This document shows, in pieces, positions 5,251 to 47,485 of a DNA stretch of 64,000 nt; the stretch's first letter is position 1, and the number at the start of each line of letters is the position of its first letter. The translations under genes were made by a program, and so were the position numbers. The notes under the pieces were generated by a model, which was not told the DNA's origin, searched no databases, and worked only from the letters and a program-made list of their open reading frames with translations. The DNA comes from Escherichia virus TH10, in the sequence record MT446388.1. The stretch is one strand, 5' to 3'.

Positions 5251-5282
5251 ACTAAATAAAATCCTAAACTGGAGTTATCAAG

Positions 5283-5546: not shown

Positions 5547-5559
5547 ATTACTAATCAAC

Positions 5560-5576
5560 GGGGATGACCTCCCCCC
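5560..5576 (+). promoter_or_regulatory. leader stem-loop, family A variant
   Basis: GGGG-ATGA-CCTCCCC. Confidence 0.45.
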
Positions 5577-5610
5577 ACTAAGTAAAGTCCTAAACTGGAG
5601 AATCTAAATT

Positions 5611-5859
5611 ATGTCAACTATCCGCGTAACTGTTAATGCTTATGGCTGCCACGAACTTGATGCAAAATTCGATATCGGTGGAACAGATAACACCTTTGAC
5701 CTTATCAAAATGCTGATTCAGCAGGTGCTACCAGATTATAACCCTACCGATGACTTTTGGAAGGACGCTGTAAAAGAAGCCATAAACGAGGAATATCACT
5801 ACCACTACTGGGGAGAAAAAATCGTCTCCCTATACTACAGCAAACAAGGTTACAACTAA
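5611..5859 (+). CDS. hypothetical early protein (82 aa)
   Basis: ORF after cassette; last + strand gene before the non-coding region. Confidence 0.55.
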   Translation: MSTIRVTVNAYGCHELDAKFDIGGTDNTFDLIKMLIQQVLPDYNPTDDFWKDAVKEAINEEYHYHYWGEKIVSLYYSKQGYN

Positions 5860-5894
5860 TCGACGCAACGGGGCTATTTAGCCCCAGATACCTG

Positions 5895-5922
5895 AAAAGC
5901 TCCTTCTCATAGGGGCTTTTTT
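5895..5922 (+). terminator. rho-independent terminator
   Basis: AAAGCTCC..GGGGCTTTT hairpin followed by T-run; preceded by GGGGCT-ATTT-AGCCCC hairpin at 5870-5885. Confidence 0.6.
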
Positions 5923-5929
5923 ACGTCTA

Positions 5930-7520
5930 TCCAATCCCTTCCCAGAATCTTCCCAGACTCCCCTAACAAGTTAGAATCTTACCAGACCTTAAAAGCAATA
6001 ACTCTATAGTCTACTCTATATCTTCTTATCAAATCAACTTAAATATAAGCCCATAACCCGAAAGGGAAGGGCAACCACTAAAACGCTCTATAAAGCTCTA
6101 TAACAGCCTTATCAACCTAACTTAAGCAATCATATTAACCTGCTCTAAAAAGCCCTTTATAAAGCTTCCTAGAACCTTAAAAGAATCTTATAAGGGTGTA
6201 AGCTTTATTATCTCGTTAGCTATCTTGTGAACTACTAAACAAGCCCCTTGATAGTAACTGAAAAGTATGTTATAGGGGCTATAAAGTTACTTCAAAGTTG
6301 CTTAAAAGTTACGTAAATGCTAGCCCCCTTAACATTTTCTTAACAATTTCTTAACAATCCCTACATAGTTATGCTTTTAAGGCACTTGTTAGAGACTTGT
6401 TAGCCCCTTGTTAAATCTCTGTTAAGACCACGTAAAAACCTTGTAAGAACCTTTGACATAGCCTTTAAAGCCCCTGTAAAGCCCTATAAAGAGGTATCTG
6501 TATAGTTGGGGTGTAATTACTAGGAAGAGGCTTAAAAGAGCTTACAAGGAGCTATAGAGAGCTTTTAAGAGGTATGTTTAAAGAATCACTAAGAGGGGAA
6601 GGGAACGATAAGAGAAGAGTAGTGACCATGTTAATAGCTTGTTAAAAAGATTAAACACTTGTTAGAAACTTGTTAATCATCTTAATTGGTATTGTTACCA
6701 ATCCCTACAAAATAACTCTTAAAAATTAACTTGTTAGCTCTTGTTAGTCATCTGTTAAGAGACTATAAAGACCATGTATCGTCTGTTAAGAAACTGTTAA
6801 GCCCTTGTTAGTTCTGTTAAGAATCTGTTAAGACCTTTGAAGAGTTGTTAAGAAGATGTGAGAACTGTTAAGAGATTGTTAAGGATATTTTAAAATTTTG
6901 CAAAGGGGATGTTACAGGGATGTTAAGGGCTACCAAGCAGATATACATCTTCTACAGATATTTTTCAGTTCCTTCAAAGACCCTAAAAAATGACTTGATA
7001 GTCCTATTTTATAAAAATTTTAAAAATCTGAATAATTACCTATACAGTCTTTCTAAAATACAGGTAGAAACAGGCTTATAAGATACCTTGTTAGTACCGT
7101 GTTAGACCTTGTGAGATAAGGTCTGTAAAGATATTCCTGTTAAGTTTGTTAAAACAGTCTATATAGAGGCTTAGTAATACCTAGTGAACACCTATAGAGT
7201 GTCATCTATGTGACATAGAGATTAAGAGGTGTATAGGAGCTTCTAAGAGGGTATAGAGAGATGGTTAAGGTGATTGTATAGGTTGTTAAGAAGGCTTGTT
7301 AGAAGAGTGTTTAGAAGGCTATTTAGAAGGGCTATACAGAGGGGCTATTAAGACCACTAGATAGTTACTAAGATACTATATAGTACTATATAACTATATA
7401 GAGAGTAAGATTAAGAAGGTTGTTAAGAAGGATAGATATTTTATTCACATATGATGGTGACCCAGAGGTTGGGACAACCGATAAAATTTTATAAAAAATA
7501 TAAATTTCGTAAATTTTACT
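5930..7520. repeat. ORF-free iteron-rich region
   Basis: no ORF of 60 aa or more in any frame; at least 25 copies of (C/T)TGTTA(A)G in mostly one orientation, often about 11 bp apart (densest 6650-6900), plus CTATA(A/G)AG family. Confidence 0.8.
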
Positions 7521-18007: not shown

Positions 18008-18084
18008 CTCTGTTTAGCTCAGCTTGGTAGAGCGTTCCGTTTGGGGCGGTAAGGCCGGAGGTTCAAGTCCTCCAACAGAGACCA
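18008..18084 (+). tRNA. tRNA-Pro (UGG)
   Basis: 7-bp acceptor CTCTGTT/AACAGAG, T-arm GGAGG-TTCAAGT-CCTCC, loop ttTGGgg, encoded CCA. Confidence 0.75.
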
Positions 18085-18091
18085 AATTAAT

Positions 18092-18169
18092 GTTCCAGTA
18101 GACAAAATGGTAAAGTCACCACTCTTTCAAAGTGGATATCTGAGGGTTCAAATCCCTTCTGGAACGCCA
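18092..18169 (+). tRNA. tRNA-Glu (UUC)
   Basis: acceptor GTTCCAG/CTGGAAC, anticodon stem CCACT/AGTGG, loop ctTTCaa, CCA. Confidence 0.8.
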
Positions 18170-18176
18170 GTTTTGA

Positions 18177-18248
18177 CAGAAGACCAATTACAGCAAACTT
18201 AATCTACTCATCTGAAAGTTAATCGGACAAAGAAGATATTTGGTCTGG
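18177..18248 (+). ncRNA. structured element 1 (CAGAAGACC..GGTCTGG helix)
   Basis: 5' CAGAAGACCAA pairs with 3' TTGGTCTGG; no ORF; one of 4 copies with compensatory changes. Confidence 0.4.
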
Positions 18249-18259
18249 TCATTAAGAAT

Positions 18260-18336
18260 TGCGGGTATAGAGAAAGGGCGTCTCACATGTCTCATTAGCA
18301 TGGTATCGGCAGGTTCGACTCCTGCACCCGCCTCCA
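18260..18336 (+). tRNA. tRNA with CAU anticodon (Met or Ile2), atypical
   Basis: T-arm GCAGG-TTCGACT-CCTGC, acceptor with 1-72 mismatch, loop ctCATta, CCA; irregular D arm and 6-nt variable region. Confidence 0.55.
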
Positions 18337-18342
18337 ATTTTG

Positions 18343-18401
18343 CAGAAGACCGTATTCAGCAACAAAATACTTTTTGCGGATAAAAGAAAAACACGGTCTG
18401 G
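18343..18401 (+). ncRNA. structured element 2 (CAGAAGACC..GGTCTGG helix)
   Basis: 5' CAGAAGACCGT pairs with 3' ACGGTCTGG. Confidence 0.4.
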
Positions 18402-18412
18402 CAATGTATTAA

Positions 18413-18489
18413 GGTTAGGAAGCACATAAGGTATGTGCGGTCGCCTGTTAAGCGAATGGCACAGGGTTCGAATCCCTGACTAACCGCCA
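18413..18489 (+). tRNA. tRNA-Asn (GUU)
   Basis: T-arm CAGGG-TTCGAAT-CCCTG, D-stem GCAC/GTGC, loop ctGTTaa, CCA. Confidence 0.75.
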
Positions 18490-18497
18490 AATTAAAT

Positions 18498-18585
18498 GTG
18501 TCGTTATCCCGTAGATGGTAGCGGTGGGGACTGTAAATCCCTTGTCATTGAGACTCGGTAGGTTCGACTCCTACACGGCACACCA
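18498..18585 (+). tRNA. tRNA-Tyr (GUA), type II
   Basis: acceptor GTGTCGT/ACGGCAC, anticodon stem GGGGA/TCCCT, loop ctGTAaa, long variable arm, T-arm GTAGG-TTCGACT-CCTAC, CCA. Confidence 0.8.
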
Positions 18586-18590
18586 ATAAA

Positions 18591-18667
18591 GGCTATGTAG
18601 TTTAACTGGAGAAAATACTCCCCTGTCACGGGAGATGATGTGAGTTCAAGTCTCATCGTAGCCGCCA
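18591..18667 (+). tRNA. tRNA-Asp (GUC)
   Basis: acceptor GGCTATG/CGTAGCC, anticodon stem CTCCC/GGGAG, loop ctGTCac, CCA. Confidence 0.8.
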
Positions 18668-18728
18668 ATTTTGAGAGGGCTATTTAGCCCCTCCCTTAAA
18701 GAGTTCTTACGAGTATTCTTTAAAGGAG

Positions 18729-18804
18729 CAGAAGACCAAATACAGCAAGAACGTATGAAAATTTCAAGCCAATTTAATTTTGAAAAATTTAAAACTTGGT
18801 CTGG
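18729..18804 (+). ncRNA. structured element 3 (CAGAAGACC..GGTCTGG helix)
   Basis: 5' CAGAAGACCAA pairs with 3' TTGGTCTGG; interior A/T-rich. Confidence 0.4.
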
Positions 18805-18817
18805 CTCAACAAATTTA

Positions 18818-18948
18818 CAGAAGACCGTTTACAGCAAAACTTAAACAATCTATTTCTCGGTAAAGAAAAGGCGAAGGTTCGATTCCTTCACTCGGCAGAT
18901 GTCGAGTTGGTGTAATGGTAGCACTTAAGATGATAAACAACGGTCTGG
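18818..18948 (+). ncRNA. candidate Y-RNA-like RNA: permuted tRNA-like module closed by terminal helix
   Basis: order is helix strand (CAGAAGACCGTT), T-arm (GAAGG-TTCGATT-CCTTC), acceptor 3' strand ACTCGGC, 4-nt loop, acceptor 5' strand GTCGAGT (7 bp incl. one G-U), D-arm GTG-TAATGGTAG-CAC, helix strand (AACGGTCTGG). Confidence 0.5.
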
Positions 18949-19097
18949 TAATTGTCTTTGTAGATAAGTTATTAAGCTTACCTGTGAGTATGCGACCACA
19001 AAGGGTGAAAGGGTAAATTCTAGATTTAAACCCAAAAAGGCACATCGCTACAGACCTTAAGCAAGTCTGGGTAGCTTATCTACAAAGATAATTTAAT

Positions 19098-19173
19098 GGA
19101 AGTGTAGCAGAATGGTGATGCGGCAGACTTTTAATCTGACAGGCGATGGGTTCGAATCCCTCCACTTCTACCA
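19098..19173 (+). tRNA. tRNA-Lys (UUU)
   Basis: acceptor GGAAGTG/CACTTCT, anticodon stem CAGA/TCTG, loop ctTTTaa, GGGTTCGAATCCC T-arm, CCA. Confidence 0.7.
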
Positions 19174-19251
19174 AATTCACCCTTAACTGAGAAACACCTG
19201 CGCGGCTGGAAACACCCACTCAACAGTTTCTCTAACTAGGGTACTTATTCT

Positions 19252-19328
19252 GGTTCAGTCGCAGATAAGGTAATGCAAGGGTCTCATAAGCCCTATGAAT
19301 GTGGGTTCGATTCCCATCTGAACCTCCA
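19252..19328 (+). tRNA. tRNA with CAU anticodon (Met/Ile2)
   Basis: acceptor GGTTCAG/CTGAACC, anticodon stem AGGGT/GCCCT, loop ctCATaa, T-arm GTGGG-TTCGATT-CCCAT, CCA. Confidence 0.7.
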
Positions 19329-19329
19329 A

Positions 19330-19405
19330 GCTGGTATAGTTAAGAAGGTTATAACACTCCCCTGATAAGGGAACATCGGTGGTTCGATTCCACCTACCAG
19401 TACCA
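19330..19405 (+). tRNA. tRNA-Ile (GAU)
   Basis: acceptor GCTGGTA/TACCAGT, loop ctGATaa, T-arm GGTGG-TTCGATT-CCACC, CCA. Confidence 0.75.
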
Positions 19406-19420
19406 ATTTCAATAAAGTTG

Positions 19421-19449
19421 TTGACATTGAGATGTGACAGCTTTATAGT
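19421..19449 (+). promoter_or_regulatory. sigma70-like promoter (TTGACA-17-TATAGT)
   Basis: consensus hexamers inside tRNA array; followed by about 200 nt ORF-free transcript before tRNA-Arg. Confidence 0.55.
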
Positions 19450-19652
19450 AACCTTAGTTTTCGTTGCGTAGCGTCTATTTTGCAAATTTAAAATAAATGC
19501 AAACGACAATGTTTTTCTGGCAGTAGCTTGATAGGCTAAACACCAGTGAGGTCTTCCAACCCCTCATCAAAGAATTTGGCGTACTAGCCCACGGTATGAT
19601 TAATAAGGTGGGCATCTTTAAGGGCTTTCTCAGAGAGTCTTTAAAGATTAAT

Positions 19653-19729
19653 GCACCCTTAGTTCAATTGGATAGAGCAACGGTCTTCTAAATCGTTAGT
19701 TACAGGTTCGAATCCTGTAGGGTGTGCCA
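19653..19729 (+). tRNA. tRNA-Arg (UCU)
   Basis: acceptor GCACCCT/AGGGTGT, D-arm AGTTCAATTGGATAGAGC, loop ctTCTaa, T-arm ACAGG-TTCGAAT-CCTGT, CCA. Confidence 0.8.
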
Positions 19730-19877
19730 AATAGTTAGCAGATTGCTTAGACGACCTTATCGGGTCTCCGTGTAAGGAGGTGGTCTGTATCTCATGTTTT
19801 CCAGAACATGTAAATAATCTGAGAAGGGGCTTTACAGTGTTGAGATAATACGGTAAGCTTCGAATTATAGTTTTAAT

Positions 19878-19948
19878 AGGGGTGAGCTATGGCAGCAATA
19901 GAGTCTCCAAAATTCTTGATTAGAGTTCGAATCTCTACACCCCTGCCA
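19878..19948 (+). tRNA. tRNA-Trp (CCA), short
   Basis: perfect acceptor AGGGGTG/CACCCCT, T-arm TAGAG-TTCGAAT-CTCTA, loop ctCCAaa, CCA. Confidence 0.65.
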
Positions 19949-19962
19949 GAACAGGTGCTTGT

Positions 19963-20367
19963 ATGAAACTTTGTAGAAAATGTTCTCAAGAAAAGCCTTT
20001 AAGCTGCTTTCATAAAAGAGGTAATGGCTATCAGTCTGCTTGCAAAGATTGTAAAGCTAAGTACTCAGCAAAGAGATACAAAGAAGACCCTACTTATAAA
20101 GCAAAAAGAAAAGTTAGGGCAAAATATGACAAAAAGAGGAACAGAGAGTTCCTTAGTAGATATAAAAAGTTTTGCAAATGCAGAATATGTGGCGAATCTG
20201 AGCCAGTAGCTTTGGATTTTCATCACTTAGACCCTAAAGAGAAAGATTTTGCTCCAAGCAATCTTAAAACTTACTCTAGGGGCACTATTAAGCGTGAAGT
20301 CCGTAAGTGTGTTGTGCTTTGTTCAAACTGTCATAGGAAAGTTCATGCAGGACTGTTAAGTATTTAA
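19963..20367 (+). CDS. HNH endonuclease (134 aa)
   Basis: Cys-rich zinc-binding N-terminus; HNH motif DFHHLDP..N..VVLCSNCHRKVH; embedded in tRNA array. Confidence 0.8.
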   Translation: MKLCRKCSQEKPLSCFHKRGNGYQSACKDCKAKYSAKRYKEDPTYKAKRKVRAKYDKKRNREFLSRYKKFCKCRICGESEPVALDFHHLDPKEKDFAPSNLKTYSRGTIKREVRKCVVLCSNCHRKVHAGLLSI

Positions 20368-20380
20368 CAGTCTTATTAGG

Positions 20381-20468
20381 GGTAGGTAGCGGCTAATGGC
20401 AGCCAAACAGTCTTGAAAACTGTTGCCACTGTAGAGATACGGTGAGGGTTCGACTCCTTTACTTACCG
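20381..20468 (+). tRNA. tRNA-Ser (UGA), type II
   Basis: acceptor GGTAGGT/ACTTACC, anticodon stem ACAGT/ACTGT, loop ctTGAaa, long variable arm, T-loop TTCGACT; CCA not encoded. Confidence 0.75.
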
Positions 20469-20626
20469 CCTAATAAGATTTAAAGCCAAGCTTCATTCGG
20501 ATGTTGCTTTGGTATCCCTCGTGTATTGTCGTACACGCACAGTAAAACACCTAGTAGGTGTCACGGAGAAGAGATAATATCAAGCTCTCCAAAGGTTCTA
20601 GTCACCGGATTAAACAAGACTATGCA

Positions 20627-20647
20627 AAGACCTTTTTAGGTCTTTTT
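20627..20647 (+). terminator. terminator-like hairpin inside tRNA array
   Basis: AAGACC-TTTTTA-GGTCTT followed by TTTA. Confidence 0.35.
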
Positions 20648-20726
20648 AGAGGGCTTCTAAGGTTATTACAGCTTGTTGTGGAACCTTGTTGCTTAGGTTC
20701 TTAGAAGTTCTCTAAAAAGGTTTAAT

Positions 20727-20804
20727 GGGAGATTGACGGTAATTGGTAAACCTACCATCCTTAGAAGTTGGTGTTTGAGGGTTCGAATCCCTTGTCTCCT
20801 ACCA
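20727..20804 (+). tRNA. tRNA, anticodon UAG (Leu-like), short variable arm
   Basis: acceptor GGGAGAT/GTCTCCT, T-arm GAGGG-TTCGAAT-CCCTT, loop ctTAGaa, CCA; lacks type II arm. Confidence 0.6.
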
Positions 20805-20811
20805 AATTAAT

Positions 20812-20887
20812 GCAGGTGTAGCAAAATGGTTATGCGGCTGACTCTTAATCAGTAAGACGATGGGTTCAATTCCCTCCACCTGTACCA
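20812..20887 (+). tRNA. tRNA-Lys (CUU)
   Basis: acceptor GCAGGTG/CACCTGT, anticodon stem GCTGA/TCAGT, loop ctCTTaa, GGGTTCAATTCCC T-arm, CCA. Confidence 0.7.
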
Positions 20888-20893
20888 AACAAT

Positions 20894-20969
20894 GGGGATG
20901 TAGTTTACATGGTTAAAACATAAGTTTTGCAAACTTAAGTACAGGGTTCAATTCCCTGCTTCTCCACCA
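20894..20969 (+). tRNA. tRNA-Ala (UGC)
   Basis: acceptor with G3:U70 pair (Ala identity element), anticodon stem TAAGT/ACTTA, loop ttTGCaa, T-arm CAGGG-TTCAATT-CCCTG, CCA. Confidence 0.8.
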
Positions 20970-20975
20970 ATTAGT

Positions 20976-21050
20976 GCATCCATAGTTTAAACGGGAAAAT
21001 TACAGTCTTCCAAACTGAGGTTGAGGGTTCGATTCCCTCTGGATGCTCCA
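20976..21050 (+). tRNA. tRNA-Gly (UCC)
   Basis: perfect acceptor GCATCCA/TGGATGC, loop ctTCCaa, T-arm GAGGG-TTCGATT-CCCTC, CCA. Confidence 0.75.
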
Positions 21051-21056
21051 AACAAT

Positions 21057-21133
21057 GCTGCTTTCGTATAATTGGCTATTACACATCCCTTGTAAGGATG
21101 GAAATGCAGGTTCGAGTCCTGTGAGCAGCACCA
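21057..21133 (+). tRNA. tRNA-Thr (UGU)
   Basis: acceptor GCTGCTT/GAGCAGC, anticodon stem CATCC/GGATG, loop ctTGTaa, T-loop TTCGAGT, CCA. Confidence 0.8.
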
Positions 21134-21137
21134 ATTC

Positions 21138-21226
21138 AGAGGTCAAGTGAAAGACCGCTTTGAGTCAACTGAAGACCGTAACAAATTCCACGGAGTTGAG
21201 TTAGCGGCACAACTCCAGACCTCTTT
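21138..21226 (+). ncRNA. structured ORF-free element (nested inverted repeats)
   Basis: outer AGAGGTC..GACCTCT and inner GGAGTTG..CAACTCC inverted repeats; contains GAAGACCG motif. Confidence 0.35.
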
Positions 21227-21229
21227 CAT

Positions 21230-21304
21230 ACTCGCTTAGTTTATATGGTAAAACACCACCCTTACAAGATGAAGAAAAAGGTTCAAGTCCTTTAGTGAGT
21301 ACCA
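21230..21304 (+). tRNA. tRNA, isotype uncertain (possibly Val UAC)
   Basis: acceptor ACTCGCT/AGTGAGT, T-arm AAAGG-TTCAAGT-CCTTT, CCA; anticodon stem poorly paired. Confidence 0.55.
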
Positions 21305-21305
21305 T

Positions 21306-21383
21306 GTTCCAGTATCCCAATTGGCAGAGGATGCAAGCTCAAACCTTGTACTAGTGACGGTTCGAATCCGTCTTGGAACACCA
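21306..21383 (+). tRNA. tRNA, anticodon CAA (Leu-like), short variable arm
   Basis: acceptor GTTCCAG/TTGGAAC, anticodon stem GCAAG/CTTGT, loop ctCAAac, T-arm GACGG-TTCGAAT-CCGTC, CCA. Confidence 0.6.
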
Positions 21384-21399
21384 ATTTTAGGAGAACACT

Positions 21400-21507
21400 A
21401 TGAGTAATAAGTCAATTGCAAAAAAGTTTATAGCGTCATTCAAAAACAGACGTAAAAACAACTCTTGTGAAAAACTGTATGGTGTTCTTGTAGGTAAGCA
21501 GGATTAG
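21400..21507 (+). CDS. possible small basic ORF (35 aa)
   Basis: AGGAG RBS 7 nt upstream of ATG; not in ORF track (<60 aa); 3' end overlaps next tRNA by 10 nt. Confidence 0.3.
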   Translation: MSNKSIAKKFIASFKNRRKNNSCEKLYGVLVGKQD

Positions 21508-21573
21508 TTCAAATGGATAGAGCAACAGTCTACGAAGCTGTTAATAGGGGTTCGAATCCCTTATCCTGCACCA
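21498..21573 (+). tRNA. tRNA-Arg (ACG)
   Basis: perfect acceptor GCAGGAT/ATCCTGC, D-arm AGTTCAAATGGATAGAGC, loop ctACGaa, T-loop TTCGAAT, CCA. Confidence 0.8.
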
Positions 21574-21592
21574 ATTTAAAGAGGCTATTTAG

Positions 21593-22150
21593 ATGAGATA
21601 TTTGAAGTATGCTTCATGGATTTTCTTAGCTTTGTTAGAACCATTTGCAGCAACCCTAGCAGTCATCTTAGCACCTTTTGTAGTTCCATTCTACAGTGAG
21701 AAGAAAGGACACTTACCTTTCGGGTTCAGATGGATGGAGACATATGACAACCCAATTGATGGTGATGAAGGTCACGTTAAAAGATGGGCTAATATTAGAT
21801 GGATTGGTAAACTAGGCGTCTACATGCAAAGAGTCGGATGGCTCTGGAGAAACAAAGCTTATAACTTCTCTTACCATGTATTAGGAAGAGATGTAAAAGA
21901 TGTTACTAAGTGGAAAGGTAATATCAACGTAAGTTCTGACCCTGAAGATAATCAGACTGGTTATCTCCTAATGTGGAACAGTAATGCTTGGGGATTATTC
22001 GCCTTTATCCCATCAATTAAAGTCTTTGGTAAACAGTTTTACTGGAGAATTTATATTGGATGGAAACTAAAAAGTGTTGTCCCAGAAGAAAGAGCATTCT
22101 CAAGGGAAAGAGTTATGTTGGCATTCTTTATTCATCCACTGAGAAAGTAA
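21593..22150 (+). CDS. hypothetical membrane protein (185 aa)
   Basis: AAGAGG RBS; hydrophobic N-terminal segment; Trp-rich; embedded in tRNA array. Confidence 0.6.
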   Translation: MRYLKYASWIFLALLEPFAATLAVILAPFVVPFYSEKKGHLPFGFRWMETYDNPIDGDEGHVKRWANIRWIGKLGVYMQRVGWLWRNKAYNFSYHVLGRDVKDVTKWKGNINVSSDPEDNQTGYLLMWNSNAWGLFAFIPSIKVFGKQFYWRIYIGWKLKSVVPEERAFSRERVMLAFFIHPLRK

Positions 22151-22158
22151 AGATTTAA

Positions 22159-22234
22159 AGGGGATTAGTTTACAAGGTTAAAACCTCGGTCTTTGAAATC
22201 GAAGAAGTTGGTTCAATTCCAACATCCCCCGCCA
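22159..22234 (+). tRNA. tRNA-Gln (UUG)
   Basis: acceptor AGGGGAT/ATCCCCC (1-72 mismatch), anticodon stem TCGGT/ATCGA, loop ctTTGaa, T-arm GTTGG-TTCAATT-CCAAC, CCA. Confidence 0.7.
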
Positions 22235-22236
22235 AT

Positions 22237-22315
22237 GCTCCATTACTCCAATTGGCAGAGAGGCCAGACTTAAAATCTGTGTTATGTATCGGTTCGAATC
22301 CGATATGGAGTACCA
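22237..22315 (+). tRNA. tRNA, anticodon UAA (Leu-like), atypical variable region
   Basis: acceptor GCTCCAT/ATGGAGT, T-arm ATCGG-TTCGAAT-CCGAT, loop ctTAAaa, CCA. Confidence 0.55.
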
Positions 22316-22320
22316 AATTT

Positions 22321-22396
22321 AGCGGTATAGCATAACTGGCAATGCAGCAGTCTCTGAAGCTGTCCTATTAAGGTTCAAATCCTTATGCCGCTGCCA
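22321..22396 (+). tRNA. tRNA-Gln (CUG)
   Basis: acceptor AGCGGTA/TGCCGCT, anticodon stem GCAGT/GCTGT, loop ctCTGaa, T-arm TAAGG-TTCAAAT-CCTTA, CCA. Confidence 0.7.
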
Positions 22397-22427
22397 CTTC
22401 TAAGGATTCTTACGAGAGTCCTTAAAT

Positions 22428-22503
22428 GTGGCCTTATCATAAATGGTAATGACCCATGCTGTGAACATGGTCTATACGGGTTCAAATCCCGTAGGTCACC
22501 CCA
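22428..22503 (+). tRNA. tRNA-His (GUG)
   Basis: acceptor GTGGCCT/AGGTCAC, anticodon stem CCATG/CATGG, loop ctGTGaa, discriminator C, CCA. Confidence 0.8.
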
Positions 22504-22508
22504 ATTTA

Positions 22509-22585
22509 TAGTCCAAGTAGCTTATATGGTTAAAGCGCGTGTCTGAAAAACATGAGAAGAGGGTTCAAATCCCACTGGACTACCA
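22509..22585 (+). tRNA. tRNA-Phe (GAA)
   Basis: acceptor TAGTCCA/TGGACTA, anticodon stem CGTGT/ACATG, loop ctGAAaa, T-loop TTCAAAT. Confidence 0.7.
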
Positions 22586-22601
22586 ATTTCAAAGGTGCTT
22601 A

Positions 22602-23336
22602 ATGAAAGAGATGACAGAACAAGGTAAGGAGATTTTTAATCTCTTAAAAACTGGTAAAGGGTTTTCTAATCCCCTTATTACTGGTGCAGCAGTTCTCAGT
22701 GGAACCGTAGCTGCCTCTACATCACTTGTAAGCTCTATTAGCTCTGTAACAGACCCAACAATAAAAGATAAACTTGTTGCTGCTGGACTTACAACAGTTC
22801 TGCTTAACAGCTTTACAACGAGCCTGACAAGCACTACATCAACTACCAAAACACTGACAGATTACGGTCAAAAGTCCATTGATGAGTTTTCATCACGTAT
22901 GCAGGTAGCAAAAGGTTATTCTAATGTTATGGGTGCAGCAGGTGAACAAGTTGGCTGTACACCATTTAGTGGTATTATGGGTGTTGCTACAGAGTATGGT
23001 CAAAAAGCTATTGATACGATTAACAGTGCACTAGACGGTGTTAATGATGTATTAAGTGACTTACAAGACGCTATTGACAAAGGTCTTGATACTATTTCTG
23101 ATTTAGCTAACCAAGCTGTTAGTAAGATTAATGAAGGTATTTCGAAGATTACAGCTTATGCAGATGAAGTTGTGCAGATGATTGAAGAAGAAGCTGCCCT
23201 TATTGCAGAGTACCTTAGAACGAATATCAATGGGTTCTTAGCAGGTATCTTACCAGACTGGTTTGATGATGCTTGTAAAACTGGTGTAATTGATACTATT
23301 GCAACACCAGAAATGAAGAACGCATTACAGAAATAA
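22602..23336 (+). CDS. hypothetical Ser/Thr-rich protein (244 aa)
   Basis: ORF track 22539..23336 starts at GTG inside tRNA-Phe; trimmed to first ATG (MKEMTEQ). Confidence 0.6.
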   Translation: MKEMTEQGKEIFNLLKTGKGFSNPLITGAAVLSGTVAASTSLVSSISSVTDPTIKDKLVAAGLTTVLLNSFTTSLTSTTSTTKTLTDYGQKSIDEFSSRMQVAKGYSNVMGAAGEQVGCTPFSGIMGVATEYGQKAIDTINSALDGVNDVLSDLQDAIDKGLDTISDLANQAVSKINEGISKITAYADEVVQMIEEEAALIAEYLRTNINGFLAGILPDWFDDACKTGVIDTIATPEMKNALQK

Positions 23337-23337
23337 T

Positions 23338-23430
23338 GGAAGATTAACCCTAAAAGGTAAGGGAGCAGTTTGCTAAACTGCCAGTAGCTGAGAAATCGGT
23401 GTACCAGTTCAAGTCTGGTATCTTCCTCCA
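23338..23430 (+). tRNA. tRNA-Ser (GCU), type II
   Basis: perfect acceptor GGAAGAT/ATCTTCC, anticodon stem GCAGT/ACTGC, loop ttGCTaa, long variable arm, T-arm ACCAG-TTCAAGT-CTGGT, CCA. Confidence 0.8.
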
Positions 23431-23434
23431 ATTC

Positions 23435-23510
23435 GAATCCGTGACAGAAATGGCTATGTGCCTGTCTGCAAAACAGGTTTATAAGGGTTCAAGTCCCTTC
23501 GGATTCTCCA
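23435..23510 (+). tRNA. tRNA-Cys (GCA)
   Basis: perfect acceptor GAATCCG/CGGATTC, anticodon stem CCTGT/ACAGG, loop ctGCAaa, T-arm AAGGG-TTCAAGT-CCCTT, CCA. Confidence 0.8.
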
Positions 23511-35208: not shown

Positions 35209-43221
<8,013 letters not shown>

Positions 43222-43223
43222 TA

Positions 43224-44396
43224 ATGGCAGTAGGTGAAATTCAAATTAGTGCCTTGCCTCAAGCAGCTTTACCAATTGACCTTAGTGATATCTTCCATCT
43301 TAAGCAGGGTATTGAGGATAAGAGGTGTACTCTTGAGCAATTACTTGCTCCACACGCAAGCCTAAGAAATAACCCTCATGGTGTTACTAAAACACAAATT
43401 GGTTTAGATAATGTTATTAATGCTCTTCAGTTAGTCGCTGCAAATAACTTATCAGATATTGTTAATGTAGCTGAGGCAAGAGCAAATCTACAGATTATGT
43501 CTTCAGAAGAGGTTAATAACCTTGTTCAGCAACATATTCAGGACAAGAGCAACCCACACAATACAACTAAGGCACAGGTAGGATTGAGTAATGTTCAGAA
43601 CTGGACAACATCTAACCTTTATAATGAAGATGCAGATAAGTATGCTACAGCAAGAGCAGTAAATAACTTGTACAAGGCTGTTCAGGCTTCCTATCCAGTA
43701 GGTACTATCCATCTTTCCATGAACTCTGCAAACCCTTCTACATACTTAATTTGCGGAGGTACTTGGGAGTTAGTCTCAAAAGGTAGGGCATTGGTTGGTT
43801 ATGCCTCTGATGCAAGACCAGCAGGTTCTGTATTTGGTGCTTCAACTGTCACTTTGTCAGTTAATAATATGCCTCAACACTCCCACTCTGTATCTCTTAG
43901 TGGTGGTGGTCACACTCATAATGCAACTGTGTCAATCTCAGCTTTTGACTATGGAACTAAGACTACCAACTCTTTTGACTATGGAACAAAAGCTACTAAC
44001 ACAACTGGCAACCATACACATAGTGTGTCAGGTAACACGAGTACAAACGGTACTCATGACCATGACGTGTATCCTAGAGAAAATGATGGCACTGGTAATG
44101 CTGTAGCTGACTCTGATGGTGGTGGTGCAAGAAGGACATCAAGGACATCTAGTGATGGCGCACACTCACATAGTTTTAGTGTTACATCTGGTGCATCCGG
44201 TAACCACAGTCATACAGTCGGTATTGGTGCTCACAGCCACACAGTTGGTATTGGTTCACATACACACAGTGGTACTGTGACAGTTTCTTCTTCTGAGCAT
44301 ACACATAGTGGTAACACGAATAGTGTTGGTGGAGGTCAGGCTGTGAATATCGAACAGCCGTCCTTCGTGCTGTATGTATGGCAGAGAACAGCTTAA
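43224..44396 (+). CDS. tail fiber protein with His-x-His repeat tip (390 aa)
   Basis: C-terminal HSHS, HTHN, FDYGTK, NHTHSVSG, HSHSF, HSHTVGIGAHSHTVGIGSHTHSG repeats; C-terminus ..YVWQRTA. Confidence 0.75.
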   Translation: MAVGEIQISALPQAALPIDLSDIFHLKQGIEDKRCTLEQLLAPHASLRNNPHGVTKTQIGLDNVINALQLVAANNLSDIVNVAEARANLQIMSSEEVNNLVQQHIQDKSNPHNTTKAQVGLSNVQNWTTSNLYNEDADKYATARAVNNLYKAVQASYPVGTIHLSMNSANPSTYLICGGTWELVSKGRALVGYASDARPAGSVFGASTVTLSVNNMPQHSHSVSLSGGGHTHNATVSISAFDYGTKTTNSFDYGTKATNTTGNHTHSVSGNTSTNGTHDHDVYPRENDGTGNAVADSDGGGARRTSRTSSDGAHSHSFSVTSGASGNHSHTVGIGAHSHTVGIGSHTHSGTVTVSSSEHTHSGNTNSVGGGQAVNIEQPSFVLYVWQRTA

Positions 44397-44406
44397 TTTC
44401 TTTACA

Positions 44407-44426
44407 GGGGCTTTATAGCCCCTTTT
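44407..44426 (+). terminator. terminator-like hairpin
   Basis: GGGGCT-TTAT-AGCCCC followed by TTTT. Confidence 0.45.
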
Positions 44427-44442
44427 AAGAGGAAAATTTATA

Positions 44443-46800
44443 ATGGCAGATTACAAGTTGAGTGAATTAAACTCAATCGACACAATCCGTTCAGACGACC
44501 TTCTTCATGTCAGAGTTAAAAAGAGACCTGAAATGCTAGGTGATGAAGACCGTCGAATGACCTATCAAGACTTCTTAGCATCTTTTAAGCTTGAAAGATT
44601 TGTCCAGATTGCTGGTAGTACTATGACGGGTGACTTAGGGATTGTTAAGTTACTCTATGGCGGTAAGGCAGTATTTGACCCAACAGATTCTTCTGAGATT
44701 AATATTGGGGATGTTTTAAAGACTTTTAAAATTAACGCAAATGGCCTTAAACTAACTATTGCAGATGCTTCGAGGTCAGCAACTGTTTATCATACTCTGA
44801 ATAAACCAAGTCCTAATGAGCTTGGGATGAGAACTAATGAAGAGAATGATGCAAGATACTCAAGATTGGCTGTAAAAAACACCTTTAGCAGTACTCAAGC
44901 TATTCTCTCTGATAATGAAGCCCTTATTATTAAGAATACCACACAAGGTGCGCCAATCTACATTAGTTGCCAAGATGCAGATGGCACTCAAAGATGGTAT
45001 CTTGGCAATGATGCTTTTAGTAGAGATAACCTTGTTATCAAAAATGTTAAATATGGTGTCTATTTAGCTCTTTTAGACGGCCTATTATCCGTGAACAAAT
45101 CACTCCAGATTGTTGGTCAAGTTCGACCTTCTGATTGGGCTAACTTAGATGCTAGATACTTTACTCAGACAGTCGCTAATCAGAGATTTGCACAGCTAGC
45201 TGGTGATAACACCTTTAGGGGTATTAATAATTTTGTAGGTGAGTTCAAAATTACCAGAGATAATGCTGCGTTAGTTATTAAGAATGCCTCTAATGCAACC
45301 GGACTATACCTACTTGGGGTGAAGGCTGACGGTACAAGCAAATTCTACTTAGGGACTGATACTTCTGACTCTGTAGTTAATCTGCACAACTACAGCACAA
45401 GCACAACCATCTCTTTGTCAGATGTGATTAGTGCTACTAAGACTGTGAGAATCACTGGTCAAGTTCAACCTTCTGATTGGACTAACATTGACTCTAGATA
45501 CGTTCCGGCAGGAACTTTGAGCAATCTTGCTAAACTCAGTGACATGAATACTTTTAGGTCTGCACAAATTATTACACAAAATGGTTCATTGTTGCGACTA
45601 AAAAACACTGTTCAGGATAATGAACTGTACCTTTCTGGTCATAATGCTGATAATGCGAGAAGGTGGTACATCGGGACTGCTGATAGAGCAAACCCATCTA
45701 GATTCATTATCCACAATGATAAAACTGTGACCACTATTTTTATGGAAGATGACTTTTTGCTAAATAAAACTGTAAGGATTACTGGTCAAGTACAACCTTC
45801 TGACTTCTCTAACTTAGATGCTAGATACTATACCCAATCTGCCGCAAACGCAAGATATATGCTTGCAAGCATCACTGGCTCAGCTTCTGAAGCAGATGGC
45901 GGTGATGGTGTTGCATGGAATGCAAAAACAGGTCTCTATAAGGTTACTAACACAAGTGGCCAGTCCTCTCTTCTTGTGTATCACATGTTTTTGGGCACTA
46001 GTTCTACGCCATCTGCACAATTAAAGTTTAATTTTAAAAATGGTGGGATGTGGTATAGAACAGCAAGAGATAGCTATGGTTTTGAGGCCAGTTGGTCTAA
46101 AGTTTACACAGATACTCAAAAACCAACCCCTTCAGAAATTGGTGCATATACTAAAGCCGAAACTGACCAGAAAATTGCAACAGCAATTAGTGACTCTACA
46201 GACCTTAATAAAATCTATCCAGTAGGTATTGTAACGTGGTTTAACAGTAATGTTGACCCTAATACAGCACTTCCTGGGTTAACTTGGACGTACCTTAACA
46301 ATGGTGTTGGTAGGACTATCAGGATTGCAGCAGCAAATGGTTCAGATGTTGCTACAACTGGTGGTTCAGACTCTGTAACGTTGTCTGTTGGTAACTTACC
46401 ATCACACACCCATAGTTTCTCTGCTACCACTTCATCTTTTGATTATGGTACAAAGAACACTAATAACACTGGTGCTCACACCCACTCTGTAAGTGGTACT
46501 GCTAACTCTGGTGGTGGACACGCACATAGAATCTCACAAGGTGACAACGCTAACGTACCATCTGGTCGTGTTGCTTCATCAAACTCTGCTCAAACGCACG
46601 TTGGTTGGACAGAAAGTGATGGTGTTCACACTCACTCTGTAAGTGGTTCTGCTGCATCTGCTGGGGGACATGCTCATTCTGTAGGTATTGGCGCTCACAG
46701 TCACACAGTTAGTGGTAACACTGGTGGTACAGGTTCTGGTTCAGCATTCAGTGTTACTAACCAGTTCTACAAGTTAATGGCTTGGGTAAGAACTGCTTAA
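44443..46800 (+). CDS. long tail fiber protein with triplicated shaft repeats and His-x-His tip (785 aa)
   Basis: three internal repeats (..(V/L)(R/Q)I(T/V)GQV(Q/R)PSD(W/F).N(L/I)D(A/S)RY..); C-terminal FDYGTKNTNNTGAHTHSVSG..HAHSVGIGAHSHTVSG; C-terminus ..MAWVRTA. Confidence 0.8.
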   Translation: MADYKLSELNSIDTIRSDDLLHVRVKKRPEMLGDEDRRMTYQDFLASFKLERFVQIAGSTMTGDLGIVKLLYGGKAVFDPTDSSEINIGDVLKTFKINANGLKLTIADASRSATVYHTLNKPSPNELGMRTNEENDARYSRLAVKNTFSSTQAILSDNEALIIKNTTQGAPIYISCQDADGTQRWYLGNDAFSRDNLVIKNVKYGVYLALLDGLLSVNKSLQIVGQVRPSDWANLDARYFTQTVANQRFAQLAGDNTFRGINNFVGEFKITRDNAALVIKNASNATGLYLLGVKADGTSKFYLGTDTSDSVVNLHNYSTSTTISLSDVISATKTVRITGQVQPSDWTNIDSRYVPAGTLSNLAKLSDMNTFRSAQIITQNGSLLRLKNTVQDNELYLSGHNADNARRWYIGTADRANPSRFIIHNDKTVTTIFMEDDFLLNKTVRITGQVQPSDFSNLDARYYTQSAANARYMLASITGSASEADGGDGVAWNAKTGLYKVTNTSGQSSLLVYHMFLGTSSTPSAQLKFNFKNGGMWYRTARDSYGFEASWSKVYTDTQKPTPSEIGAYTKAETDQKIATAISDSTDLNKIYPVGIVTWFNSNVDPNTALPGLTWTYLNNGVGRTIRIAAANGSDVATTGGSDSVTLSVGNLPSHTHSFSATTSSFDYGTKNTNNTGAHTHSVSGTANSGGGHAHRISQGDNANVPSGRVASSNSAQTHVGWTESDGVHTHSVSGSAASAGGHAHSVGIGAHSHTVSGNTGGTGSGSAFSVTNQFYKLMAWVRTA

Positions 46801-46879: not shown

Positions 46880-47077
46880 ATGCCTACAATCCTAGCAATT
46901 CTTCTAAAAAATCTAGGTAGCTTCTTCTGGAAACTCATTTTATCCCTTCTAAGTGAATACATGATTGAGAAAGTGTTCTTTAGGCTTGCAAGATACCTTG
47001 CGAGTAAAACAGACACACCTATTGATGATGAGTTCGTAGATAACTTAGAAAAAGCTTTTAAGGGGGAGAATAAATGA
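46880..47077 (+). CDS. hypothetical small membrane protein (65 aa)
   Basis: N-terminal hydrophobic segment. Confidence 0.45.
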   Translation: MPTILAILLKNLGSFFWKLILSLLSEYMIEKVFFRLARYLASKTDTPIDDEFVDNLEKAFKGENK

Positions 47078-47445
47078 AGTGGCTAGAGGAAGCTTTTAAA
47101 AATAATATTGGTGCAATTGTAGTTGGTATTTTTAGTGTTATTGGGATGTATACCACCATGCAAGTTTCAAGTGGTAAACAAGAAGTGTCTGTCACAACAA
47201 AGTTACAGCAGCTAGATAATTATTCCAAAAGTAACTATTCAGCTATTCGTGATTTACAGTCTGACATGAGATTGATTCAGCTAGGGATGGAGAACCAGAA
47301 AGTTCAGTTAGAGAATGTTAAGGGCGAAAACGCAAAACTTACCAAAACTCTTGATAAATTTTCTGACAGTGTAAATAATCTGGCTCAATCAGTATCAGCC
47401 CTCCAAGCTATTACTGAGAAGAACACAAAGAATACTGAAAAATAA
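47074..47445 (+). CDS. hypothetical membrane-anchored coiled-coil protein (123 aa)
   Basis: N-terminal TM (IGAIVVGIFSVIGMY) then heptad-like region. Confidence 0.5.
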   Translation: MKWLEEAFKNNIGAIVVGIFSVIGMYTTMQVSSGKQEVSVTTKLQQLDNYSKSNYSAIRDLQSDMRLIQLGMENQKVQLENVKGENAKLTKTLDKFSDSVNNLAQSVSALQAITEKNTKNTEK

Positions 47446-47453
47446 AATTTTAA

Positions 47454-47485
47454 GGCTCCTTTTGACGGGAGCCTTTTTTGTTTTT
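47454..47485. terminator. bidirectional rho-independent terminator
   Basis: GGCTCC-TTTTGAC-GGGAGCC flanked by A-run upstream and T-run downstream; sits between convergent genes. Confidence 0.7.

Follow-up and report, generated by a model that had tools for sequence, protein, structure and literature searches.

Described relatives of the fibre pair

The C-termini of both side tail fibres of the Felix O1-like phages were published as homologues of T4 gp37 in 2010 (Felix O1 gp76/gp77) and 2015 (VpaE1 gp74/gp75), and the plan of both fibres, in which a collar is followed by a needle with HxH motifs and a head, was published in 2025 from the cryo-EM of Sf14 and Bas63 (Bas63: PMC12609058). Bas63 (JohannRWettstein; gp26 and gp27) and Sf14 (gp52 and gp53; 391 and 792 aa) belong to the same genus or subfamily as the phage studied here and agree with it in gene order and roughly in fibre length, and Sf14 encodes no Mu-type chaperone. 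For the T4 gp37 tip, the histidine numbering and the role of iron are established (PMC6957217; PMC12609058), and its subdomain 932-959 binds LPS and OmpC (PMC6957217).

The window analysed here, a stretch of 64,000 nucleotides from Escherichia virus TH10 (MT446388.1), contains two tail fibre reading frames on the + strand, 43224..44396 (390 aa) and 44443..46800 (785 aa), both located correctly by an earlier sequence-only reading. By homology, 43224-46800 encodes the short and long side tail fibres (STF and LTF) of a Felix-O1-like myovirus of the genus Felixounavirus; compared with E. coli phages of this genus, the structural module is ~97% identical at the nucleotide level, the fibres ~91% with gaps. 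The STF is the orthologue of Felix O1 gp76, VpaE1 gp74 and Bas63 gp26; it matches phrog_2097 ("tail fiber protein") end to end (E 2.7e-137), shares 85-98% identity with many Felixounavirus proteins and falls under features annotated "tail fiber protein" in 232 phage records. The LTF, orthologous to Felix O1 gp77, VpaE1 gp75 and Bas63 gp27, matches phrog_4277 end to end (1276 bits) and is 100% identical to P0121, a singleton 90% cluster, the next-nearest cluster being 86% identical.

The two genes follow those of two wedge proteins, of 489 aa (Baseplate_J) and 287 aa, and a 100-aa ORF (42919..43221, + strand, just 5' of the STF), an order identical to Felix O1 ORF73-77 and matching that described for Bas63 (PMC12609058). 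The 100-aa ORF belongs to phrog_4141, a family without a function label; by synteny and size it is a probable long-fibre platform, corresponding to Bas63 gp25. No gp38-like chaperone gene adjoins the fibres, a difference from T4, and the two downstream ORFs encode small membrane or coiled-coil proteins.

Our overall reading, to which we assign a probability of about 0.9, is that these are two Felixounavirus side fibres with T4-gp37-type tips, variable heads, a repeat-built LTF shaft and a portable tip cassette. They share with Bas63 and Sf14 the baseplate-binding domain, the beta-domain repeats with helix-turn linkers, the collar, the HxH needle and the head; they differ as alleles, no other structural proteins of the genus diverging as much as the fibres. 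The fibre pair is thus real but ordinary within Felixounavirus, its architecture being already published, and the sequence-only reading contains no new point, in view of the 2010, 2015 and 2025 reports.

Tips of the T4 gp37 type

Both fibres end, as judged from homology, in a receptor-binding tip of the T4 gp37 type. In phmmer searches the solved T4 tip (2XGF) is matched by STF aa 146-362 (E 9e-29) and LTF aa 646-764 (E 9.5e-14), and the Pfam families Gp10_C and Phage_fiber match as well. The predicted order in each tip is a collar of gp10/gp12 type, an ascending strand, a head, a descending strand and a C-terminal strand leading back to the collar. This hairpin topology is read from sequence homology and the indel pattern only, because AF2 and Foldseek gave no structural support: the AF2 monomer models of the STF (pLDDT 64, pTM 0.26) and LTF (pLDDT 50, pTM 0.22) are poor and fall below pLDDT 50 in the tip, and a Foldseek search with the low-confidence STF model gave no match at E <= 0.001.

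In the STF, a shaft (43368..43595, +) carrying two copies of a NPH..TK.Q(I/V)GL.NV motif read from the translation (aa 49-64 and 109-124) lies within aa 37-150, which match many tail-fibre PHROGs. The collar that follows (aa 154-218; 43683..43877, +) scores 63.5 bits against Pfam PF21939 Gp10_C, for which the cut-off is 27, and aligns with the T4 gp37 collar (2XGF) and with T4 gp10. The ascending needle strand (aa 219-280; 43878..44063, +), with HxH motifs at 219, 230, 264 and 278, a duplicated FDYGTK and the segment FDYGTKTTNSFDYGTKATNTTGNHTHSVSG at aa 241-270, aligns with T4 gp37 883-931, iron-binding histidines included. A predicted receptor-contact loop, the head (aa 281-313; 44064..44162, +), then occupies the position of T4 subdomain 932-959. 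The descending strand (aa 314-365; HxH at 314, 328, 337, 346 and 359; HSHTVGIGAHSHTVG at aa 328-342), aligned with T4 gp37 966-1012, and the C-terminal strand (aa 366-390, ending VWQRTA) together span 44163..44393 (+).

The LTF tip is built alike. Its collar (aa 589-654; 46207..46404, +) is 94-100% conserved among orthologues and scores 26.2 bits against PF21939, slightly below the cut-off; the ascending strand (aa 655-695; 46405..46527, +; HxH at 655, 679 and 693; FDYGTKNTNNTGAHTHSVSG at aa 666-685) aligns with T4 gp37 and leads to the head (aa 696-728; 46528..46626, +), again a predicted receptor-contact loop. The descending strand (aa 729-757; HxH at 729, 743 and 752; HAHSVGIGAHSHTVSG at aa 743-758) and the C-terminal strand (aa 758-785, ending AWVRTA) together span 46627..46797 (+), residues 751-785 being 97-100% conserved. 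A 58-nt direct repeat, 83% identical (46470..46677, +; copies 46470-46527 and 46620-46677), flanks the LTF head and codes for G(A/V)HTHSVSG..A.S.GGHAH in both needle strands. The C-terminal strings that the sequence-only reading had quoted occur in both fibres, and the two C-termini are related as it had said; its FDYGTK(T/N) requires correction in the STF, where the copy beside HTHSVSG is FDYGTKA.

The two tips would thus share with T4 gp37 (domains D10 and D11) the collar, the six-stranded HxH-iron needle, the small head and a C-terminal strand ending in R(L/T)A, and each of the 7 T4 HxH sites is matched in the STF, 6 of them also in the LTF. Unlike in T4, where the fibre is made of four proteins (gp34-37), they are carried on much shorter single-gene fibres, the STF has two additional collar-end HxH motifs and the LTF one fewer, and the head sequences differ, the cassettes that contain them being 54% and 51% identical to T4.

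Variable heads and the shaft of the long fibre

The ~33-residue head, which separates the final HxH of the ascending strand from the initial HxH of the descending strand, is where these fibres are hypervariable. Mean identity in the STF head is 0.15-0.23 among 48 orthologues versus 0.7-0.99 elsewhere, and the LTF head is the least conserved part of its tip (0.47-0.57 among orthologues), the cassette DNA around it being rare enough that among cultured phages EcoM2 alone matches it at full length (84%). Conservation and the T4 structure suggest that the head is likely the LPS-contacting determinant. In the residue-shuffle test the STF and LTF heads are no more alike than expected by chance (z = -0.1), and the shared tip module proposed by the sequence-only reading must therefore be confined to the collar, needle and C-terminal strand. 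Since the heads are unrelated while the collar and needle are common, the fibres would share a scaffold and not a specificity, and they probably see different ligands.

The LTF owes its length to three tandem beta-domain repeats, which short conserved linkers join, and to a Mu-S-like domain behind them. After an N-terminal baseplate-binding region (aa 1-125; 44443..44817, +; 97-100% conserved in 99 orthologues), a first linker-like motif, KPSPNELGMRTNEENDARY (aa 121-139), which is similar to the linker at aa 560-578 (hhalign E 2e-4), extends into the first of three ~115-aa shaft repeats (44818..45852, +; R1 aa 126-239, R2 aa 240-353, R3 aa 354-470). The three internal repeats of the sequence-only reading are the ends of these larger units, as GQV(Q/R)PSD(W/F).N.D.RY closes each beta-rich repeat (aa 225-239, 339-353 and 448-462). 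The repeats match one another by hhalign (pairwise E 1e-38 to 1e-47), Pfam PF20744 gp37_trimer matches three stretches of the LTF (E 4.7e-52), and a 72-nt repeat occurs in three copies in the DNA at spacings of 342 and 327 nt. In the AF2 monomer the beta domains reach pLDDT 70-85 with short helices between them; Foldseek relates this low-confidence monomer to T4 gp34 (4UXG; E 2e-4, probability 0.94) at a TM below 0.2. The likeness to the gp34 rod thus lies in repeated beta-rich shaft domains and short conserved linkers, the T4 rod being much longer than the three repeats of the LTF; by structure, Bas63 has five beta-helix domains, versus three strict repeats and two related domains recognized by sequence here.

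The Mu-S-like domain (aa 481-586; 45883..46200, +; Pfam PF12604 gp37_C, 72 bits) is homologous to the Mu tail fibre S/S' (8JU3, 5YVQ): LTF aa 481-582 match residues 330-430 of Mu protein S (8JU3) by phmmer (E 4.9e-24), and Foldseek relates the domain to 8JU3 (E 3e-7). Unlike its Mu counterpart, it stands in mid-fibre, with a gp37-type tip beyond it.

Among orthologues, R1-R3 have variable cores and conserved linkers, and identity in these cores and the Mu-S-like domain (0.39-0.62) is as low as in the LTF head, so that the head may not be the sole determinant of specificity. The best-surviving alternative holds that LTF specificity resides mainly in laterally binding shaft domains (R1-R3 and the Mu-S-like domain), the tip being one contact among several. 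Lateral shaft binding has also been raised by the authors of the Bas63 study, and host challenge of a Salmonella Felixounavirus enriched variants of LTF residues 497 and 534, which belong to the Mu-S-like domain and not to the tip (PMC6669636). However, tolerant beta-domains may drift neutrally, or the shaft variation may reflect escape from a defence system, the tip is the cassette that is in fact exchanged, both between fibres and with T4, and T4 specificity is carried by the tip (PMC6957217). We consider a shaft-centred specificity possible, though on balance improbable, and retain the head as the likely determinant.

The tip cassette and its HxH motifs

The distal needle and head, from FDYGTK to GIGAHxHTV, constitute a portable cassette that has been copied between the two fibre genes of relatives of this phage. 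In the relative L001, 278 nt are 100% identical in both fibre genes (gene nt 748-1025), and in Felix O1, UAB_Phi87 and two other phages the STF and LTF cassettes are 73-83% identical versus ~50% in the flanks; clusters of cassettes with both STF and LTF members number 3 of 27. In the window the best STF/LTF DNA matches are micro-homologies that fall exactly on the cassette boundaries, one at the FDYGTK codons (43971..43990, +, versus LTF 46435-46454; 90% over 20 nt, blastn) and one at the GIGAHSHTV codons (44210..44249, +, versus LTF 46674-46713; 85-86%), and these positions coincide with the start and end of the L001 identical block.

This coincidence speaks for the view, suggested by the sequence-only reading, that the tips of the window themselves actively serve as a substrate for homologous recombination within the genome and thereby switch host range. 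The DNA of the two tips, however, is 52% identical, no higher in the cassette than in the collar (49%) or the C-terminus (54%), and the best match extends over 37 nt at 86%. With a longest exact shared word of 14 nt, the window genome is a poor substrate for homologous exchange, which would need microhomology and be rare, and the DNA comparison of the window STF and LTF tips reveals no trace of past conversion. Active recombination in the window is thus unlikely, and the recombination potential that had been proposed holds for the relatives (L001, Felix O1, UAB_Phi87 and two others).

'His-box' recombination was reportedly described in the distal fibre genes of T-even phages by Tetart, Krisch and colleagues in 1996-1998. 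The present case resembles it in that short conserved His motifs bound hypervariable adhesin segments and exchange junctions fall there, the L001 conversion tract terminating within GIGAHSHTV; it differs in that the exchange joins the short and long fibre genes of one genome, in another subfamily, and is seen in relatives only and not in the window.

Felix O1 carries the same head type on both fibres (cassette 83% identical in aa, 81% in nt), and its two fibres seem likely to be redundant. A like redundancy in the window, with STF and LTF binding one receptor through a shared tip, would accord with the common collar and needle and with the 83-85% aa identity of STF and LTF cassettes in Felix O1 and UAB_Phi87. 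It is somewhat less likely again than active recombination, because the window heads are unrelated, the full-length window cassettes share 38% identity, and they fall in separate cassette clusters, each STF-only or LTF-only. Different ligands for the two fibres remain the preferred reading.

The nine STF and six LTF HxH motifs align with T4 H883/885, 915/917, 929/931, 966/968, 980/982, 989/991 and 998/1000. Nine are also counted in most STF orthologues, whereas seven di-histidine motifs are reported for the Bas63 STF (PMC12609058), and six, plus HHxH, for its LTF. Matched insertions, of 21 aa (ascending strand) and 20 aa (descending strand), make the STF needle the longer of the two. The STF HxH histidines are invariant or nearly so in 53 relatives while neighbouring residues vary, and none of LTF H655, H657, H679 and H681 varies among 49 sequences. 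As the motifs are among the most conserved tip residues, they are, by homology to T4, best read as structural staples of the needle shaft, acting as internal metal ligands rather than in receptor contact. On the T4 model both histidines of each HxH would face the axis of the trimer, and two axial histidines from each of three chains would give six ligands for one Fe ion; such sites (up to nine for the STF, six for the LTF) could staple the six-stranded needle without touching the receptor.

The sequence-only reading had associated HxH repeats with receptor-binding tips of T4-type fibres, which is correct as to a metal-binding tip homologous to 2XGF and, judged by homology, incorrect as to the receptor-contact surface, the motifs lying in the needle shaft. 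That the repeats themselves form the receptor-binding surface, for example for LPS phosphates or cell-surface divalent cations, is very improbable: both fibres do carry them in their distal third, and T4 H929A and H931A abolish plaque formation (PMC6957217), but in T4 the histidines are turned towards the trimer axis, where they bind iron, their loss being a folding defect (PMC12609058; PMC6957217), and the motifs are conserved where specificity determinants should vary, the variable part of the tip being the His-poor head.

The view that the C-termini are alike only through His/Ser/Thr/Gly-rich low complexity is refuted, for although the needle strands are compositionally biased (shuffled sequences score 44 +/- 7), the composition-adjusted BLASTP match of STF to LTF has E 3e-28 (38% identity over 187 aa, non-repetitive collar included), residue-shuffle z values are 11.9 in the ascending strand, 12.9 in the descending strand plus C-terminus and 12.2 in the collar, which is not of low complexity, and each tip independently matches the solved T4 tip and the Gp10_C model. 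The collar, needle and C-terminal strand are, on these alignments, everything that the two fibres share.

The two tail fibers and their genomic setting

Sequence comparisons place the window phage among the Felix-O1-like myoviruses, as a member of the genus Felixounavirus (subfamily Ounavirinae). Many E. coli Felixounavirus genomes match a 25-kb stretch containing the fiber genes at about 96-97% identity, and over the 3.6-kb fiber region the identity falls to about 91%, with a coverage of only about 85%, in the best records. Two open reading frames (ORFs) fill exactly the coordinates that a sequence-only reading had assigned to a pair of tail fibers, viz. the short tail fiber (STF; 43224-44396, 390 aa) and the long tail fiber (LTF; 44443-46800, 785 aa). 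They are preceded by a 489-aa Baseplate_J wedge protein, a 287-aa wedge protein and a 100-aa ORF, the same gene order as in Felix O1 ORF73-77; STF matches the PHROG tail-fiber family 2097, and LTF matches family 4277 end to end. Their sequences and their conserved order after the baseplate wedge genes identify the two proteins as orthologues of the Felixounavirus STF/LTF pair (Felix O1 gp76/gp77; Bas63 gp26/gp27). The names STF and LTF are taken from the Bas63 cryo-EM paper, and gp26 and gp27 were compared through the published description (PMC12609058).

The homology of the C-termini of both Felix O1 fibers to T4 gp37 was published with the genome in 2010 (PMC3185647), and the same homology was published for VpaE1 gp74 and gp75 in 2015 (PMC4690856). 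Cryo-EM studies of Sf14 and Bas63 in 2025 described two fibers of 430 and 630 Å (PMC11821841, PMC12609058), and the Bas63 paper additionally reported a tip made of collar, needle and head, conserved His-x-His (HxH) motifs in both fibers, gp34-like repeats, and a high variability of the tips and the repeat domains (PMC12609058). Since these papers cover both the homology and the architecture, what the sequence-only reading had found was already known. The biology of the window is ordinary for the genus and has been published; the interpretation first offered for it is largely right, though imprecise about which part the fibers share and which part contacts the receptor. The value of the present analysis at the level of the window is mainly one of annotation (viz. 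STF and LTF, their domain boundaries and their likely specificity segments).

LTF is followed by two small ORFs encoding a 65-aa hydrophobic protein (phrog_402; 46880-47077) and a coiled-coil protein of 123 aa that weakly matches an Rz-like spanin (phrog_4038; 47074-47445), after which there is a strong bidirectional terminator (47452-47475) and, beyond it, convergent thymidylate synthase and DHFR genes. No fiber-chaperone-like gene of the T4 gp38/gp57A type adjoins the fiber genes among the neighboring ORFs, to which the screen was confined, and a scan for promoters and terminators inside the fiber genes gave nothing above chance. Elsewhere in the window, a baseplate spike ORF (39548-40171, 207 aa) with a PF18352 N-terminal domain carries at its C-terminal end an HxH motif that resembles the iron-binding di-histidine reported for the Bas63 and Sf14 central spikes. 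The + strand carries 27 clustered tRNA genes at 18008-23510, among them one for tRNA-His(GTG) at 22428-22503, whose counterpart in Felix O1 was classed as a pseudo-tRNA in the genome paper (PMC3185647).

A gp37-type tip with a variable head

Searches with phmmer show homology of both tips to the crystal structure of the receptor-binding end of T4 gp37 (2XGF): STF aa 146-362 match residues 18-228 of the 242 in the chain (211 residues) with an E value of 9.2e-29, and LTF aa 646-764 match with an E value of 9.5e-14. BLASTP with compositional adjustment aligns STF with LTF over 187 aa (E 3e-28), and in residue-shuffle tests the collar (STF 154-218 vs LTF 589-654), which is not of low complexity, the ascending strand, and the descending strand together with the C-terminus give z values of 12.2, 11.9 and 12.9, respectively. 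The STF collar also matches the gp10/gp12-type Pfam domain PF21939 at 63.5 bits against a cut-off of 27, with the LTF collar marginally under this cut-off at 26.2 bits. A recent tandem duplication of the whole fiber genes is rejected because their N-terminal two thirds are without significant similarity. A low-complexity artefact is likewise rejected by the composition-adjusted search and the shuffle scores. The motifs quoted for the two related C-termini were all found at the correct location, and the likeness of these C-termini reflects homology rather than a shared His/Ser/Thr/Gly composition.

The tip module that had been described as shared proves to be so for the collar, the needle and the C-terminus, but not for the head (STF 281-313 vs LTF 696-728), where the shuffle test gives z = -0.1. 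From these comparisons, the module common to both fibers is a scaffold with an unshared center.

STF contains nine HxH motifs and LTF contains six. With T4 gp37 numbering anchored on H929 and H931 (PMC6957217), the STF motifs at 230, 264, 278, 314, 328, 337 and 346 align with T4 883/885, 915/917, 929/931, 966/968, 980/982, 989/991 and 998/1000, respectively, so that HxH is present at all seven of the T4 sites in STF and at six of the seven in LTF; the STF motifs at 219 and 359 (collar end) are extra motifs beyond the seven of T4. The STF of Bas63, in contrast to the nine motifs counted here, is reported to have seven di-histidine motifs (PMC12609058). The histidines are invariant or nearly so in alignments that extend to phages of Erwinia, Yersinia and Pectobacterium. 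In T4, the tip histidines coordinate seven iron ions on the needle axis and are required for folding, and LPS/OmpC is contacted by the tip subdomain between H931 and H966 (PMC6957217, PMC12609058); by analogy, STF and LTF would form trimers with axial Fe. Compared with LTF, STF carries 21 additional aa in the ascending strand and 20 in the descending one, and these matched insertions fit a hairpin-like needle, as lengthening a hairpin requires paired changes. Because the histidines are conserved, the head is variable and the strand indels are matched, as in the T4 plan, the HxH repeats are best read, by this analogy, as structural metal staples. Their earlier description as metal-binding motifs of a receptor-binding tip agrees with the homology and register of the T4-type tip, but the motifs belong to the scaffold, and the head is the likelier receptor contact.

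The hypervariable head sits between the two homologous sets of strands. Across 48 STF orthologues, the mean identity to the window STF falls to 0.15-0.23 in aa 281-310, from 0.7-0.99 in the rest of the protein, and across 99 LTF orthologues the conservation of the tip is lowest at aa 691-735, with the collar and the C-terminus 94-100% conserved. In view of these alignments and of the T4 precedent, specificity is likely to be determined by the head, and the specificity segments would then lie at 44064-44162 in STF and at 46528-46626 in LTF. In the AF2 monomer models the head has a pLDDT below 50 and no significant fold match, a confidence too low to bear on the hairpin topology either way.

Shaft domains

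The LTF shaft contains three full repeats of about 115 aa each (R1, 126-239; R2, 240-353; R3, 354-470, in LTF residues), the ends of which are the GQVQPSDW-type motifs. The repeats align pairwise with hhalign E values of 1e-38 to 1e-47, PF20744 (gp37_trimer) matches three stretches of LTF (174.4 bits vs a cut-off of 21.7, E 4.7e-52), and a 72-nt DNA repeat recurs in the shaft at spacings of 342 and 327 nt, in agreement with the triplicated shaft repeat proposed earlier for the long fiber. A further pair of mutually similar linker-like motifs occupies aa 121-139 and 560-578. Five strict repeats were considered and rejected, as nothing but this linker motif (hhalign E 2e-4) is common to the N-terminal and Mu-S-like domains, which have no detectable likeness to R1-R3. 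The Bas63 LTF has five beta-helix domains by structure (PMC12609058), and the arrangement in the window, of three strict repeats and two related domains, is compatible with it.

The Mu-S-like domain (LTF aa 481-586) matches PF12604 at 72.2 bits (cut-off 22.5), and LTF aa 481-582 match the phage Mu fiber protein S (8JU3) with an E value of 4.9e-24. The AF2 monomer models, which were built from family alignments, are poor (mean pLDDT 64 for STF and 50 for LTF); that of LTF has four beta-rich domains (pLDDT 70-85) with short helices between them at the conserved linkers. The best Foldseek matches of the LTF model are to the Mu fiber (3e-7 and 1e-5), and the T4 gp34 rod (4UXG) is matched with an E value of 2e-4 and a probability of 0.94, but with a TM score of 0.11-0.17 for a model of mean pLDDT 50. 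The STF model has no fold match at E <= 0.001, only insignificant ones to the gp10 collar and to long-beta-hairpin toxins. In a Salmonella relative, variants selected by host challenge are found at LTF residues 497 and 534, within the Mu-S-like domain (PMC6669636), and the cores of the LTF repeats vary as much as the head; on these grounds the LTF shaft may also contribute to recognition.

Two copies of a widespread fiber motif, NPH..TK.Q(I/V)GL.NV, are present in the STF shaft (43368-43415 and 43548-43595), and many unrelated tail-fiber PHROGs match only this part of STF. The LTF family (homologues such as P0138, P0142, P0199 and P0211) comprises two length classes, one of about 780-800 aa with PF12604 and another of about 842-849 aa without a PF12604 match, the latter often aligning to only about 61% of the window LTF length. 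The sequences of the longer class suggest that it carries an alternative fifth domain.

Exchange of the head cassette in relatives

The distal needle and the head together form a cassette extending from FDYGTK to GIGAHxHTV, and the shared tips had been taken to imply a potential for intragenomic recombination. In the window, the aligned tip codons of STF and LTF are 52% identical in nucleotide sequence, the cassette being likewise at 52% and no higher than its flanks; the longest exact word common to the two tips is 14 nt, and their best local DNA match is 37 nt at 86%. Comparison of the STF and LTF DNA revealed no recent conversion tract in the window, and by this measure its fiber pair is a poor recombination substrate. 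The two best STF-LTF DNA matches fall exactly on the cassette boundaries, viz. the FDYGTK codons (STF 43971-43990 with LTF 46435-46454) and the GIGAHSHTV codons (STF 44210-44249 with LTF 46674-46713). The adjacent alleles differ greatly in population frequency, as the window STF belongs to a 266-member cluster and the window LTF is a singleton at 90% clustering (nearest cluster 86%; P0121 is the identical protein). The STF cassette is widespread, with matches of 88-93% in about 25 cultured coliphages, and the LTF cassette is rare, only EcoM2 among the cultured phages matching it over its full length, at 84%.

Intragenomic exchange is, however, seen in relatives of the window phage. In the metagenomic Felixounavirus contig L001 (ENA ERZ28588151 scaffold_300), nt 748-1025 of STF and nt 2164-2441 of LTF are 100% identical over 278 nt (L001:6124-6401 and L001:8762-9039), a block that encodes the 95 aa from FDYGTK to GIGAHSHTV and whose flanks are only about 50% identical between STF and LTF; judged by its sequence, the block resembles the trace of a recent conversion within the genome. 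The L001 contig was assembled from a metagenome, so that its repeat might be an assembly chimera; the finished genomes of the isolates Felix O1 and UAB_Phi87 support the same phenomenon at lower identity. Among the 27 genomes compared, which are those with both fiber genes, six have cassettes with STF-LTF nucleotide identities of 100% (L001), 83% (UAB_Phi87, L020), 81% (Felix O1), 74% (L016), 73% (L017) and 64%, and in the others the values are 43-59%; the corresponding values over the 27 genomes are 43-54% for the collars and 49-63% for the C-termini. The recombination idea thus holds at the level of the family but does not fit the present state of the window, where the heads are unrelated.

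Similar cassettes also occur in STF and LTF of different phages, some STF cassettes being 70-91% identical to LTF cassettes of other phages (median 38%), and three of the 27 clusters formed at 65% identity contain both STF and LTF members. A total of 65 phage records contain Felix-O1-type cassette DNA, at 114 places in all, and nearly every one of the 40 listed records has it at least twice. In Felix O1 (L031, NC_005282; fibers at 3752-4918 and 4969-7317) and its Salmonella-type relatives (L020, L016 and L017), the two fibers have the same head type, with nucleotide identities of 73-83% in the cassette and 46-50% in the collars. As both of its fibers carry the same head type, Felix O1 probably directs the two at a single ligand, in contrast to the window phage. 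The T4 gp37 cassette is present in the Felixounavirus LTFs P0177, P0188, P0189 and P0137 at 88-94% aa identity, and in the STF P0016 at 78%; such near-T4 cassettes imply cassette exchange between Straboviridae and Ounavirinae.

We give roughly even odds (about 0.5) to the reading that this cassette of about 95 aa is a portable specificity unit, which has been copied repeatedly between STF and LTF, is shared with T-even phages, and allows lineages to shift between one and two receptors by way of His-motif junctions. Lineages would then alternate between "two fibers, one receptor" (Felix O1) and "two fibers, two receptors" (the window phage), with the conserved His-containing boundary motifs serving as recombination junctions. 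Tetart and Krisch reportedly described "His-box" exchanges in T-even phages, of which STF-to-LTF conversion would be a conceptual extension; our searches of the searchable literature found no description of such conversion. Intragenomic cassette conversion is a modest side lead, and if it is general, it would, together with the sharing with T4, explain the gain and loss of a second receptor specificity, and the boundary motifs would offer ready-made junctions for cassette swapping. As HxH and FDYGTK are markers of the scaffold and of the borders of exchange, it is the head cassette between these motifs, rather than the motifs themselves, that engineering and prediction of host range for Felix-O1-like therapeutic and diagnostic phages should target.

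A 58-nt direct repeat, 83% identical between its copies, flanks the LTF head in the window (46470-46527 and 46620-46677) and codes for G.HTHSVSG..A.S.GGHAH in both needle strands, ascending and descending; unequal exchange between its copies could delete or duplicate the head.
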